From: Psammoneis japonica
Taxonomy: Eukaryota
Assembly: GCA_008632985.1 (NCBI GenBank)
Contig: QPGO01000290.1
Location: forward strand, 1 to 64,000
Length of the DNA: 64,000 bases
Direction of reading: 5' to 3'
In this document: positions 21,110 through 25,552 of the stretch, piece after piece
Numbering within the stretch: the stretch's first letter is position 1
How the letters are laid out: each line of letters starts with the position of its first letter
Program-made: the position numbers and the translations under genes
Notes under the pieces: generated by a model
Database searches by the model: none
The model's input: the letters and a program-made list of their open reading frames with translations, nothing else
Told to the model about the DNA's origin: nothing

Positions 21110-24100
21110 TCACCAGCCCATGAGGGCTTTGCGACCAGTGCGGAATAGATCAACAGTCAATCCTTTAGCAAACTGGTCAGCAAGCTGTGCAGCTGAGCTC
21201 ACAGGCTCAATTTTGATCTCCAAAGCCTCAACTTTAGCACGAAACCAATGGCAGGGAATGCCGATGTGCTTGGTTCGTGGGGACAATTTTGGCATGCGGG
21301 CGAATTGGAGGCAGGCAGCATTATCTTCGTACACAACGGATGCTGGGAGGTTAGTGGAGTCAATGGGAGAATCCTCAGTTCCGTCGTTGGCGTGTCGGAA
21401 AGCCTTCGAATGTGTCGAAATGTCGGTCTGTCTGTCCGGCTGTCCGAAAACGAGCGCGTTGATTTCCTTCACGATCTCGCGAAGGGGGATGAGATCACGC
21501 ATCGCTTGGGAGAGGGCGACATGCTCGGCTTCCATGGTAGAGAGTGCGACGAGGGTCTGCAACTTGGACACCCAGACAATCGGACATCCAGCATAATAAA
21601 TGACATGTCCCGCACGTGACTTGACAGACGTGGGATCTTGTCCATCTTCAACACTGAAGAGTCCCGCGAAATCAGCATCAACATAGCAGTCGAGTCGTTG
21701 ATCGGCGGTTGGAGTTAGGATAAGTCCTTTGTCGGCCGCATCCTTCAGGTGACGAAGAATGTGCTTGACAGCCGCAGCGTGGGAGGCCTTGGGTGCGCAG
21801 GAGAACCGTGCGACTTGATGGGTCGCGCAAGCAATGTCCGGGCGGCTGTTGGACGCTAGACACATCAGCATGCCGACCACGGAACGGCAGTCACAAGGCT
21901 CTTCGAACGGTGGCCCGTCGGTGTCGCTGCCAGCAGGAGCAGGCAAGGCAGGAGTGGGTGCGCCGTTGCACCCAGTCATCTGTGCGGTTCGGAGAACTTT
22001 CTCAATTAGGCCGGGTTGGGTCAGGAGGAATCGGCCGTCTTCGAGCTTTTGAATCTTGATGCCCAGAAAGTTGCCGACTTCGCCTTCATCACGTAGATCA
22101 AAGACATGGCGTTGCTCATCGTCAGAAATGCCCAACTTGGCAATCTCTGCTTCCAAGGCTTGGGCCGATGCGCCGGCGAACACGGTGTCATCAACATGTG
22201 CCACACATGACATGCCCCTTTTGAAATAAAGACAAGGGTCAATGGCGGATTGAATCCATCCTCTTTCAAGCAATCCGTCCCTCAGCTTTTCACAGAAGCA
22301 CTTGGGAGACTGGCGTAGGCCGTGTGGGCCTTTCAATAATTTCAGTGCCAGATCGGCGCCCGATTTTGGTTGGAAACCCTTGGGAGGCTCTGCATGGACC
22401 TTCTCCTTGATGTCAGCTTGGCAGAAGGCTGCAGCACAGTCCACTTGACGTGCAGTCCAACCTTCCTTGAGTGCCGTGGTGAGGAGAAGGCGTGTGGACG
22501 ACCACTGCACTGCCGGCGCGCAGGTCTCGAAAAAATCGATCCCGTGTTTCTGCAAATCGCCGCGAACGCAACATCGTGCCTTGTGCTTCAAGGGCGCACC
22601 ATCCGGGAGTCGTTTGAGTTTGAAAGCCCATGTGCCGGGTNNNNNNNNNNNNNNNNNNNNNNNNNNNNNNNNNNNNNNNNNNNNNNNNNNNNNNNNNNNN
22701 NNNNNNNNNNNNNNNNNNNNNNNNNNNNNNNNNNNNNNNNNNNNNNNNNNNNNNNNNNNNNNNNNNNNNNNNNNNNNNNNNNNNNNNNNNNNNNNNNNNN
22801 NNNNNNNNNNNNNNNNNNNNNNNNNNNNNNNNNNNNNNNNNNNNNNNNNNNNNNNNNNNNNNNNNNNNNNNNNNNNNNNNNNNNNNNNNNNNNNNNNNNN
22901 NNNNNNNNNNNNNNNNNNNNNNNNNNNNNNNNNNNNNNNNNNNNNNNNNNNNNNNNNNNNNNNNNNNNNNNNNNNNNNNNNNNNNNNNNNNNNNNNNNNN
23001 NNNNNNNNNNNNNNNNNNNNNNNNNNNNNNNNNNNNNNNNNNNNNNNNNNNNNNNNNNNNNNNNNNNNNNNNNNNNNNNNNNNNNNNNNNNNNNNNNNNN
23101 NNNNNNNNNNNNNNNNNNNNNNNNNNNNNNNNNNNNNNNNNNNNNNNNNNNNNNNNNNNNNNNNNNNNNNNNNNNNNNNNNNNNNNNNNNNNNNNNNNNN
23201 NNNNNNNNNNNNNNNNNNNNNNNNNNNNNNNNNNNNNNNNNNNNNNNNNNNNNNNNNNNNNNNNNNNNNNNNNNNNNNNNNNNNNNNNNNNNNNNNNNNN
23301 NNNNNNNNNNNNNNNNNNNNNNNNNNNNNNNNNNNNNNNNNNNNNNNNNNNNNNNNNNNNNNNNNNNNNNNNNNNNNNNNNNNNNNNNNNNNNNNNNNNN
23401 NNNNNNNNNNNNNNNNNNNNNNNNNNNNNNNNNNNNNNNNNNNNNNNNNNNNNNNNNNNNNNNNNNNNNNNNNNNNNNNNNNNNNNNNNNNNNNNNNNNN
23501 NNNNNNNNNNNNNNNNNNNNNNNNNNNNNNNNNNNNNNNNNNNNNNNNNNNNNNNNNNNAGACCGGACAGCCCCAGACGTGGATGTCGCGAAGACGATGT
23601 CGGGGTGCAGCAGTCCCGGTAAAAATGTCCGCGGGGCAGCAGCCTTGAGCGTTGGGAGTCACGTCACAAATGTGCGCGGCATGAGACACGGCCACAGGCC
23701 ATAAAGAGCTGTCTGTGCCCCCCTTCCAACGGATGGATGCGTGGAGGAGCATCGCTCTCGCCATGTTGGAGACGGAGCGAATGCCGCGTTCTGCGACGCC
23801 GTTCTGATGGTGGGCGTTGGTTCCGCAAAAACGTAGACGTTGTTCGTGCTGTCGCATGTGTTGCACAAAAGCATTGGCCTTGAAAGCGCCAGAATCGGCA
23901 AGAAATTCTTGGATGATGACGCCGTGGTCCATCGCGTGCTTTTCAAACGCTTGCTTCGCTCGCACCGTTTCCACAGCAGAGAAACCAAGTTGGTGTTCAA
24001 CATGTGGGTAACCGGAGGCATGATCCACAAAAATGCAGCCTCCTTTGTATTGCTGGGACGAGGCCTTCCCGCAGGAGTCGTAGGTTCGGCCGAGGAGACG

Positions 24101-25552
24101 GGATTCGAAGTGATCCACGCTGACGGCTTGGCCTGGACGTAGATGCTCGGCTCGAAGAGCACCCTCACGCTCTGGAGTAGCCGCATGTTTGGCAGACTTG
24201 AGGGTTCGGCGATGTCCTTTGGCATGTTCGCACACCTCGCACCGCGGAATGTCGCAACGCGAAGCATGCTTGAATTTGGGTCGGAGAAAAGGTTCGGCCC
24301 GAAGCAGGCCTTGGATGCGTGGCATGTTCAGGTGACCAAACCTGAAGTGCCATTCTTGAAGGAGCTTCTGACCGGAGGTGAGGTTCTGGTTGTCCTCGTG
24401 CAACACAGACAGATTGACTTGAGGAGCGGGTGCCACCCCGTTGGTCACAGACGCAACCGGCAAGTGATTTGACGCACACGCGACCTTGAGCGAACCGACG
24501 CCATCAACATGCACTCGAAAGGAGTCCTCGTCTCCCTCATGTTTTCCTGTCATGCCATGTTCCTCACTGTAGAGGCGTTGTGGGGATAGAAGACGTTGTC
24601 CGGCCTGAGGTACATGGCACGCCATCGTCTTGACGACGAGCTCAGAGCCGTCCTCGTCATGGAAAACCCAGGAGACGGGTCCGATGCCGGCGATGGTTAA
24701 GCCATTTGCTAGACCCCCAAGCTTCAATGGGCCATCAGGGATCGTCAGAGGTCCGACAAAGTCGTTTTCATCGTAAGCAATGGCTGAGGATGCGCCAGTG
24801 TCGCATGTGACGGTGTGGCGCTCATGTGCCAGGCTCAGCAAAGCTTGCGGGTCGGCGGCGAGTTGTGCTAAAGAACGTTGGCCCGTCAATGCCTGCATGG
24901 AGGCATGAGCAGGACAGGCTTCGGTTCCGTCAGTGGCTGCCTGGAGAAGCTTCACAGGGTCTTGCCATGGAGTGGTGTCCACGAAACCAAACTTGGTGGA
25001 CAGCTCGTCGAAACGAAAATAGTCCGGAGAGAGCTCCTCAACCGCATCAAAGTGGTGGCTCGGCTCGGTCGGGAGCGGGCCGAGGGCTTCCTCTGAATCA
25101 TGGGTGTCGAAGTGGGACTCGAGGTCTTCTAGAGCTGGAGGGATGCAGCGGCCTGGGGAAGAGCATGCATCGTTCTCCCAGAGCTGCGTGAATTTCTTGC
25201 TCAGACAATGGTCCGGATCGCGCTCCACAAATTCGGTGAGCACTTGTCGCGCCTTGATCTTGTTGCATTCCACCAAACTGCCCGGATCTAACACCATCTT
25301 GTCGTCTGGTTCTTCAATGATCGAGTGGACCTGAGAGCCAGCTTTGGAGAAGCGAGAAGGGACATTGGAGAATGGACACGTGGGAAGCTGACCATTGAAA
25401 ACAGACGCCCAGACCATGACAGCTCCAGTCAGCACCATCCAGGTAGAGGGGAAACCGTGAATGGTTGGGATGAATGCCTTGCGGCGCACACGACGAGGCA
25501 AGACAGGAATCGGCGCACAGCAAATGTAGTGCCGTTTCCCAGAACACAGCAA
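21110..25552 (-). CDS. pol: Copia Pol (protease, GAG-pre-integrase, integrase, RT, RNase H); open on both sides of the N gap but heavily missense-mutated
   Basis: Motifs CDTGAS, WHFRFGH..CEVC, VDHF/LADSG/QNGVAER, KARCCVRG, HVDD, YVDADFAG, STMEAE, EDNAAC, KHI and LADQF.K. Confidence 0.93.
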   Translation of the reverse strand: MLCSGKRHYICCAPIPVLPRRVRRKAFIPTIHGFPSTWMVLTGAVMVWASVFNGQLPTCPFSNVPSRFSKAGSQVHSIIEEPDDKMVLDPGSLVECNKIKARQVLTEFVERDPDHCLSKKFTQLWENDACSSPGRCIPPALEDLESHFDTHDSEEALGPLPTEPSHHFDAVEELSPDYFRFDELSTKFGFVDTTPWQDPVKLLQAATDGTEACPAHASMQALTGQRSLAQLAADPQALLSLAHERHTVTCDTGASSAIAYDENDFVGPLTIPDGPLKLGGLANGLTIAGIGPVSWVFHDEDGSELVVKTMACHVPQAGQRLLSPQRLYSEEHGMTGKHEGDEDSFRVHVDGVGSLKVACASNHLPVASVTNGVAPAPQVNLSVLHEDNQNLTSGQKLLQEWHFRFGHLNMPRIQGLLRAEPFLRPKFKHASRCDIPRCEVCEHAKGHRRTLKSAKHAATPEREGALRAEHLRPGQAVSVDHFESRLLGRTYDSCGKASSQQYKGGCIFVDHASGYPHVEHQLGFSAVETVRAKQAFEKHAMDHGVIIQEFLADSGAFKANAFVQHMRQHEQRLRFCGTNAHHQNGVAERGIRSVSNMARAMLLHASIRWKGGTDSSLWPVAVSHAAHICDVTPNAQGCCPADIFTGTAAPRHRLRDIHVWGCPVXXXXXXXXXXXXXXXXXXXXXXXXXXXXXXXXXXXXXXXXXXXXXXXXXXXXXXXXXXXXXXXXXXXXXXXXXXXXXXXXXXXXXXXXXXXXXXXXXXXXXXXXXXXXXXXXXXXXXXXXXXXXXXXXXXXXXXXXXXXXXXXXXXXXXXXXXXXXXXXXXXXXXXXXXXXXXXXXXXXXXXXXXXXXXXXXXXXXXXXXXXXXXXXXXXXXXXXXXXXXXXXXXXXXXXXXXXXXXXXXXXXXXXXXXXXXXXXXXXXXXXXXXXXXXXXXXXXXXXXXXXXXXXXXXXXXXXXXXXXXXXXXXXXPGTWAFKLKRLPDGAPLKHKARCCVRGDLQKHGIDFFETCAPAVQWSSTRLLLTTALKEGWTARQVDCAAAFCQADIKEKVHAEPPKGFQPKSGADLALKLLKGPHGLRQSPKCFCEKLRDGLLERGWIQSAIDPCLYFKRGMSCVAHVDDTVFAGASAQALEAEIAKLGISDDEQRHVFDLRDEGEVGNFLGIKIQKLEDGRFLLTQPGLIEKVLRTAQMTGCNGAPTPALPAPAGSDTDGPPFEEPCDCRSVVGMLMCLASNSRPDIACATHQVARFSCAPKASHAAAVKHILRHLKDAADKGLILTPTADQRLDCYVDADFAGLFSVEDGQDPTSVKSRAGHVIYYAGCPIVWVSKLQTLVALSTMEAEHVALSQAMRDLIPLREIVKEINALVFGQPDRQTDISTHSKAFRHANDGTEDSPIDSTNLPASVVYEDNAACLQFARMPKLSPRTKHIGIPCHWFRAKVEALEIKIEPVSSAAQLADQFAKGLTVDLFRTGRKALMGW

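Follow-up and report, generated by a model that had tools for sequence, protein, structure and literature searches.

The first 64,000 nucleotides (nt) of contig QPGO01000290.1 in the assembly GCA_008632985.1 of the diatom Psammoneis japonica, hereafter the window, contain a full-length Ty1/copia long terminal repeat (LTR) retrotransposon of the diatom genome at positions 20786-28057 on the reverse strand. TpA dinucleotides throughout this element have been converted to TpG or CpA, leaving the pol reading frame open while changing many conserved residues, and the element is probably one instance of a domain-wide, TpA-specific hypermutation of DNA in a transposon-rich part of the chromosome. The original prediction, made from the letters of the window, tied this signature to Pol; it is indeed present there, but extends equally to gag, the LTRs and 92 of the 126 scored 500-bp bins into which the composition map of the window was divided. 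The element is made up of the following features:

20781-20785, no strand: target-site duplication GGAGG, low side, the same five bases bordering both LTRs
20786-21073, reverse strand: 3' LTR, 288 nt, 97% identical to 27770-28057
21074-21100, reverse strand: purine-rich run adjoining the 3' LTR, a candidate polypurine tract as read from the sequence
21110-22640, reverse strand: C-terminal part of Pol up to the stop codon, covering reverse transcriptase (RT) and RNase H, Pfam RVT_2 E=1.3e-33
22187-22201, reverse strand: RT active-site box AHVDD (homologue consensus VYVDD), codons GCA CAT GTT GAT GAC
22641-23559, no strand: run of 919 N within pol, the same pol frame lying on either side
23560-25573, reverse strand: N-terminal part of Pol (probable protease (PR) and integrase (IN)), with Pfam matches below the cut-off to gag_pre-integrs (E=5.7e-5) and Pol_BBD (E=2e-3)
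25314-27932, reverse strand: gag-like open reading frame (ORF) of 872 amino acids (aa) with a CCHC knuckle, ratio of observed to expected TA (TA o/e) 0.25
27770-28057, reverse strand: 5' LTR, 288 nt, 97% identical to 20786-21073
28058-28062, no strand: target-site duplication GGAGG, high side, equal to the low-side copy

The direct LTR pair and short target-site duplication are structural features of Ty1/copia elements, and the RT is of the RVT_2 type (PF07727, E=1.3e-33, scoring 117 bits where the cut-off is 31.6). A putative integrase upstream of the RT has weak, sub-threshold matches to gag_pre-integrs, at 23.3 bits where 28.4 is required, and to Pol_BBD; the Pfam search of Pol gave no match to rve at E<=0.01, homologues align across Pol residues ~250-671, and candidates for the D, D, E residues are visible by eye. 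The N-terminal part of Pol is matched by 631 representatives at E<=1e-30. A Pfam search with the gag-like ORF gave no match. The 919-N run probably has its true length, since the pol frame is identical on both sides of it (1+919+1 nt making 307 codons), and resembles withheld sequence more than an assembly gap of assigned size.

Damage to Pol was assessed against a consensus of 67 homologues for the RT and RNase H part, the best of which are 62% identical across 100% of the query, and against an alignment with 150 representatives for the PR/IN part. All nine motifs quoted in the original prediction read as stated in the translation of 21113-22639 (reverse strand), including AHVDD for VYVDD, confirmed by the codons GCA CAT GTT GAT GAC at 22187-22201. 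The change Y148>H in the YVDD box lies at a position occupied by Y in 64 homologues, W in three and H in none, HVDD being found in 0 of the 67, and the A of AHVDD stands where homologues have V (44), I (17), C (5) or N (1). Similarly, KGPHGL combines L105>P with Y106>H, at positions where all 66 aligned homologues carry L and Y. Each of the changes Y40>C, V43>A, Y260>C, Y297>H, Y373>H, T343>A and T491>A can be reversed by restoring TA, the query residue having a frequency of 0.00 among the homologues. By contrast, KHKAR is present as described but has no diagnostic value as TA>CA damage, H being a natural variant at this position (F in 31 of the 67 homologues, Y in 16 and H in 15). The conserved residues replaced are those encoded by Tyr codons, by codons ending in TA and at codon junctions of the form T|A.

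At columns of the RT/RNase H alignment that are at least 70% conserved, the element departs from the consensus in 44 of 281 cases, consisting of 19 single-step TA-type changes, one double TA-type change, three other transitions, ten transversions and 11 multi-step changes, giving 20 TA-revertible missense changes. The share of departures that revert on restoring TA, proposed beforehand as a check, amounts to 19 of the 33 single-step departures (58%), and to 19 of 22 when only single-step transitions are counted. An opportunity-based null for the TA-type share of single-step missense changes, with kappa of 1-10, predicts 2.3-6.4% (binomial p<=6e-15), and the same test applied to the DNA of 80 metagenomic relatives found 90 of 2868 (3.1%) to be TA-type, with 20% at the top single locus. 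Of 12 columns with a consensus Tyr, six now read His, five Cys and one Tyr. This is reflected in the amino acid content of the RT/RNase H part relative to the homologue level, which is low for Y (0.28x), N (0.49x) and M (0.60x) and high for C (1.97x), A (1.69x) and H (1.41x); the PR/IN part shows Tyr at 0.47x, His at 1.51x and Cys at 1.34x, with His or Cys at seven of its ten Tyr-rich columns. Of the 164 columns conserved in at least 90% of homologues, the element differs at 21, a higher share than in any of the 67 themselves (median 1.8%, maximum 11%). With the YVDD box among these departures, Pol is very likely disabled, as was originally proposed.

The direction of change, TA to TG or CA, was also borne out, because the homologue outgroup, TA content relative to that of related elements, an old gag copy and a trio of paralogues (the last two described below) all agree. 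TA o/e is 0.22 in pol, 0.25 in gag and 0.23 in the whole element, compared to 0.59 for the median of the 80 relatives and 0.40 for their tenth percentile. Pol now contains 38 TA dinucleotides, compared with the 94-119 that would be present at an o/e of 0.55-0.70, meaning that roughly 56-81 have been lost. On the sense strand, ten changes are TA>TG and nine TA>CA; as the two are about equal, both strands have been hit. There are no stops in the 1180 sequenced codons of pol, as originally noted, and this open frame follows from the mutational spectrum. No selection is needed to explain it, because TpA>CpA/TpG changes cannot yield TAA, TAG or TGA: in the present pol, such changes would create stops at none of 76 possible sites, compared with 67 of 564 for the CA/TG>TA changes characteristic of fungal repeat-induced point mutation (RIP), a contrast that the original prediction had drawn correctly, and 99 of 3540 for any transition. 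The stop words themselves become scarce where depletion in the window is strongest: per kb, TAA drops from 9.1 to 1.6 and TAG from 7.4 to 0.6, while TGA climbs from 19.4 to 25.0.

The RIP signature of TpA excess and nonsense codons is absent, TA o/e being 0.05-0.23 with an excess of TG/CA and no stops. RIP was consequently rejected as the cause of the changes in Pol, with TA lost rather than gained, as were the decay of methylated CpG in the focal element, where CG o/e is 0.93, and lineage-typical residues, on the basis of conservation among the 67 homologues.

The bins of the window fall into three states, all with a GC content of 0.47-0.50:

Gene-like: 34 bins, TA o/e 0.55, CG o/e 0.95, TG/CA o/e 1.19/1.25
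TA-depleted: 40 bins, TA o/e 0.18, CG o/e 0.89, TG/CA o/e 1.32/1.44
TA- and CG-depleted: 52 bins, TA o/e 0.05, CG o/e 0.29, TG/CA o/e 1.78/1.70
12501-32500, no strand: TA-depleted domain around the element, scored bins 0.00-0.35 except bin 17001 (0.41)

Hence 92 bins are TA-depleted (o/e 0-0.3), 52 of them being CpG-depleted too, and TG/CA reaches 2.0 in the doubly depleted blocks. Transitions between states are sharp at 500-bp resolution, and host-gene blocks, in which TA o/e is about 0.4-0.8, flank the domain containing the element. Every Pfam match to a host family lies within a gene-like bin, and the Pfam search of the 97 ORFs of at least 130 aa gave no match in bins depleted in both TA and CG. 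The loss of TA is targeted rather than a general bias, because the non-coding bin 53001 beside genes keeps its TA, with an o/e of 0.66, and is visibly TA-rich. Within this one 64-kb window, mobile DNA is affected while host genes and short intergenic DNA are spared. Of the TA surviving in doubly depleted bins, 54% is in a TTA/TAA context, compared to 24% of the TA in gene-like bins. This suggests that the mutator favours certain flanking bases, TAT/ATA and TAC/GTA being lost first; owing to strand symmetry, the +1 and -2 contexts mirror each other in this analysis.

Repeated sequences within the window provide a record of mutations acting on DNA. The two LTRs are mismatched at eight positions representing seven sites, of which four are TA/TG, one TA/CA, one a swap of CA for TG and one of another type; one TA site is retained in both copies and five in one only. 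The hypermutation acted after integration, on DNA, because LTRs identical at insertion now differ, with six of the seven sites TA-type. A tandem duplication with a 917-nt unit at 17126-18960, which has weak matches to gypsy-type RT_RNaseH, shows 51 transitions and not one transversion between its copies; almost all are TA/TG, TA/CA, CG/TG or CG/CA differences or CA-for-TG swaps. Such swaps should arise when one ancestral TA or CG resolves independently in two copies. In the paralogue trio, the copy beginning at 13777 has lost five of the seven TA sites common to the two gene-side copies, which themselves show no TA>TG/CA changes. The repeat or gene family concerned is unannotated and has four copies, ~80% identical, at 13777-14330, 34012-34560, 41049-41260 and 50958-51540, with ORFs ending in ...NEQRLMKLAKKLNV...; only the copy in the transposon domain is TA-depleted.

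Next to the element lies what appears to be an earlier casualty of the same process:

29026-30364, forward strand: inverted remnant of the gag of a related element, older than the focal copy, having lost nearly all TpA and most CpG, found by tblastn with gag at 50% identity

At the 14 TA sites of the focal gag, this old copy reads TG at six, CA at three and TA at none; at the 58 CG sites, it reads TG at 19, CA at 17 and CG at four. CpG depletion with a gain of TpG/CpA is found only in such older remnants (CG 0.29), and not in the focal element (CG o/e 0.93). TA is lost first and fast and CpG later, because the older remnants have lost both and the focal element TA only; the later loss would reflect a slower decay of methylated CpG. 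Among the doubly depleted bins, transposon origin has been shown only for 29026-30364. This remnant, which abuts the focal element, also includes an LTR-like piece at 28878-29088.

Other copies of the family were sought in a public run, X1, available as contigs only, with differences within ~31 nt of contig ends left out. The element is covered by 1285 contig pieces, with up to 15 distinct contigs at one place and a summed depth of 2000-3500, compared to 33-60 for single joint contigs, and the family is therefore multi-copy. Among the 34 variable sites listed, 12 are TA versus TG/CA, six CA/TG swaps, six CG-type, five other transitions and five transversions; at the 12 TA-type sites, the window is derived at eight and has retained TA at four. 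None of the 40 variable places considered, from a total of 70, coincides with the 20 TA-type missense sites, although by a strict bound only about five of 21 TA-type missense sites must be invariant. Three high-depth contigs equal the window exactly over 618 nt containing four TA, where 26.4 are expected. More distantly, two metagenome contigs encode 43%-identical relatives that are TA- and CG-poor: L076:344-1789 (TA 0.05, CG 0.21) and L026:333-1775 (TA 0.17, CG 0.11). The former retains four of 12 conserved Tyr despite having almost no TA elsewhere. Both contigs hint at additional cases of the signature.

The mechanism proposed is one in which the A:T pair within TpA becomes G:C, such that a hit on the A of one strand would give TpG and a hit on that of the other strand CpA. 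The agent may be a DNA adenine deaminase guided by chromatin or silencing, converting A to hypoxanthine that is read as G, with a preference for a 5' T like that of TadA/ADAT-type enzymes, as proposed for the chlorarachniophyte Bigelowiella natans. By destroying TA, such a spectrum would leave the frame open and the enzyme very probably dead. More speculatively, diatoms may possess a genome-defence mutator, an inverse of RIP, that deaminates TpA adenines in silenced transposon domains until no TA is left. Chlorarachniophytes would have it too, and it may go back far in SAR (stramenopiles, alveolates and Rhizaria); this broader proposal is tentative, and somewhat more likely to be wrong than right. 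Under it, stops would be removed and never made, producing long open but dead frames, and transposon lineages that shed TA would survive, which would explain a multi-copy Copia family with TA-poor shared sequence.

Several observations weigh against the proposal that the element was inserted and then disabled by TpA hypermutation. The evidence in the window is a sequence footprint, and deamination of A and modification of T leave identical ones. Estimation of post-insertion loss from the LTRs involves just seven sites, and in the PR/IN part only one of ten departures at conserved columns is TA-type. The loss of Pol function is judged from conservation. The exact match of high-depth X1 contigs to TA-poor stretches suggests that part of the depletion is common to many family copies, having been inherited and thus predating the insertion. 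Continued multiplication of a family already poor in TA is hard to square with a straightforward succession of insertion, mutation and death.

Alternative explanations differ in how much of this evidence they accommodate. Should an active lineage of diatom Copia elements ordinarily carry these residues, the element would be functional with unusual motifs; the occurrence of KHKAR in 15 of 67 homologues, the open pol frame and the multi-copy family in X1 would all fit. However, no homologue has H in the YVDD box, all 66 have L and Y at the KGPHGL site, departures at 21 of 164 highly conserved columns exceed those of every homologue, and ~58% of single-step departures are TA-type compared with 3.1% in relatives, making such a lineage extremely unlikely. 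A genome-wide, untargeted bias against TpA, with selection keeping TA in genes only, could account for TA being below expectation even in gene-like bins (o/e 0.55), but is highly improbable given that non-coding bin 53001 stands at 0.66, that states change sharply at 500 bp and that one paralogue copy is depleted while two others are not. False TG/CA calls at modified bases, through an artefact of assembly or base-calling, might be suspected from the places at which window and X1 contigs differ. Nevertheless, high-depth X1 contigs reproduce TA-poor stretches without a mismatch, the listed differences run in both directions (eight against four) with six swaps in addition, and the unrelated metagenome contigs L076 and L026 share the composition; the probability of an artefact is accordingly next to negligible.

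Two further alternatives retain the specificity for TpA but place the primary change elsewhere. Thymine modifications of the 5-hydroxymethyluracil or base J kind occur in other protists, and the primary lesion could instead be on T, with a modified thymine at TpA mispairing or being misrepaired to C. Since a TA>CA change reads as TA>TG from the opposite strand, the footprint would be the same; on the other hand, nothing among the Pfam matches of the window points to a thymine-modifying enzyme, and the only study found of the signature proposes an ADAT2-like adenine deaminase. A thymine lesion is therefore regarded as unlikely. ADAR-like editing of RNA at UA before integration, fixed through reverse transcription, would have delivered a copy mutated from insertion. 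Enzymes of this type favour a 5' U, as noted in the discussion of bioRxiv 10.64898/2026.01.13.699255, and the high-depth X1 contigs identical to TA-poor stretches imply that some loss was inherited by copying. Yet LTRs that were identical at integration now differ at six TA-type sites, a tandem DNA duplication and non-retroelement DNA carry the same spectrum, and TA>CA (9) is about as frequent as TA>TG (10) on the sense strand, a balance that could not come from editing of the genomic RNA only, leaving RNA editing very unlikely.

Hypermutation of integrated DNA at TpA has a close counterpart in B. natans. In the mutation-accumulation lines of the preprint by Mettrop et al., two integrated viral regions acquired 231 single-nucleotide mutations, of which 230 were A>G or T>C, all at TpA, and both regions mutated about 1000 times faster than the remaining genome (bioRxiv 10.64898/2026.01.13.699255). 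The same source found reverse transcriptase and DDE endonuclease domains to be over-represented among TpA-depleted coding sequences, and proposed an ADAT2-like adenine deaminase as the agent. The likeness lies in A>G/T>C changes that affect both strands and are confined to TpA, with TpG and CpA as products. In P. japonica, substitutions are likewise almost only at TpA (19 of 22 transitions and six of seven LTR sites), both products occur (ten TA>TG and nine TA>CA, as well as swaps between repeat copies), and foreign or mobile DNA is hit while host genes are spared, in one 64-kb window. The systems differ in their hosts, a diatom being a stramenopile and B. natans a rhizarian, and in their targets, which here are an LTR retrotransposon and whole transposon-rich domains rather than integrated viral DNA. 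The extent is far greater here (92 of 126 bins, compared with 124 clusters in the ~95 Mb B. natans genome), and depletion goes down to an o/e of ~0, compared with 0.45 for the B. natans viral region. CpG loss is added in the older parts of the window, and the footprint seen here contrasts with the de novo events recorded in B. natans.

Fungal RIP resembles the present case in producing dinucleotide-specific transitions in repeated or mobile DNA, disabling transposons and sparing genes, but converts CpA to TpA (C>T), raising TA and AT content and creating many stops, whereas here TA is destroyed and GC remains ~0.47-0.50. APOBEC3 and ADAR also represent deaminase-type, context-dependent hypermutation of retroelements, which it renders inactive, with ADAR favouring a 5' U; APOBEC, however, causes strand-biased G>A changes on cDNA and ADAR acts on RNA, in contrast to the strand-symmetric changes in integrated DNA described here. 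The element itself resembles the diatom Ty1/copia-type CoDi elements (Maumus et al. 2009, PMC2806351) in its probable PR-IN-RT-RNase H order and RVT_2 domain, a likeness of organisation. A search of PMC2806351 for the relevant terms found no mention of dinucleotides or hypermutation. Similarly, TpA loss in diatoms was unreported in full-text searches and in term searches of PMC2806351 and bioRxiv 10.1101/2025.10.24.684338. Within the text covered by these searches, the sole published account of foreign DNA hypermutated at TpA alone is the 2026 preprint on B. natans, and the diatom case is the second.

If the proposal is true, the same footprint at saturating strength in a diatom would make the process widespread among marine protists, and a TpA mutator would be a general defence against transposons that shapes a large share of non-genic DNA. 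There would also be practical consequences: gene finders would call long false ORFs in TA-erased DNA lacking TAA and TAG, and dating by LTR divergence would overestimate insertion age. As diatoms are genetically transformable, the enzyme responsible would be testable.

The gag and pol frames of the element are offset by one base and overlap by 260 nt (25314-25573), the single open frame being that of pol only, which spans 21110-25573. This offset is either a frameshift lesion of this copy or a +1 frameshift site. One X1 contig (depth 118 of 1124) is without one base at 25528, which places gag and pol in one frame. Another (depth 42) joins 20779 to 28057, skipping the whole element; this is possibly an empty allele, in which case the insertion is polymorphic or heterozygous.

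The host genes of the window are long single exons, encoding a mitochondrial carrier, a JmjC protein, a TLDc protein, an Asp/Arg hydroxylase and a GATase-methyltransferase. The closest named relatives of the JmjC protein, 43-48% identical, are from the raphid pennate diatoms Pseudo-nitzschia, Cylindrotheca, Nitzschia, Phaeodactylum and Mayamaea, which points to a pennate diatom as host. A TA-depleted ORF at 12852-13667 (forward strand) has a weak match to the Crinkler N-terminal domain (E=2.8e-5, just above the cut-off), and a (TTTC)n microsatellite of ~110 nt lies at 38041-38160, inside a block depleted in TA and CG.

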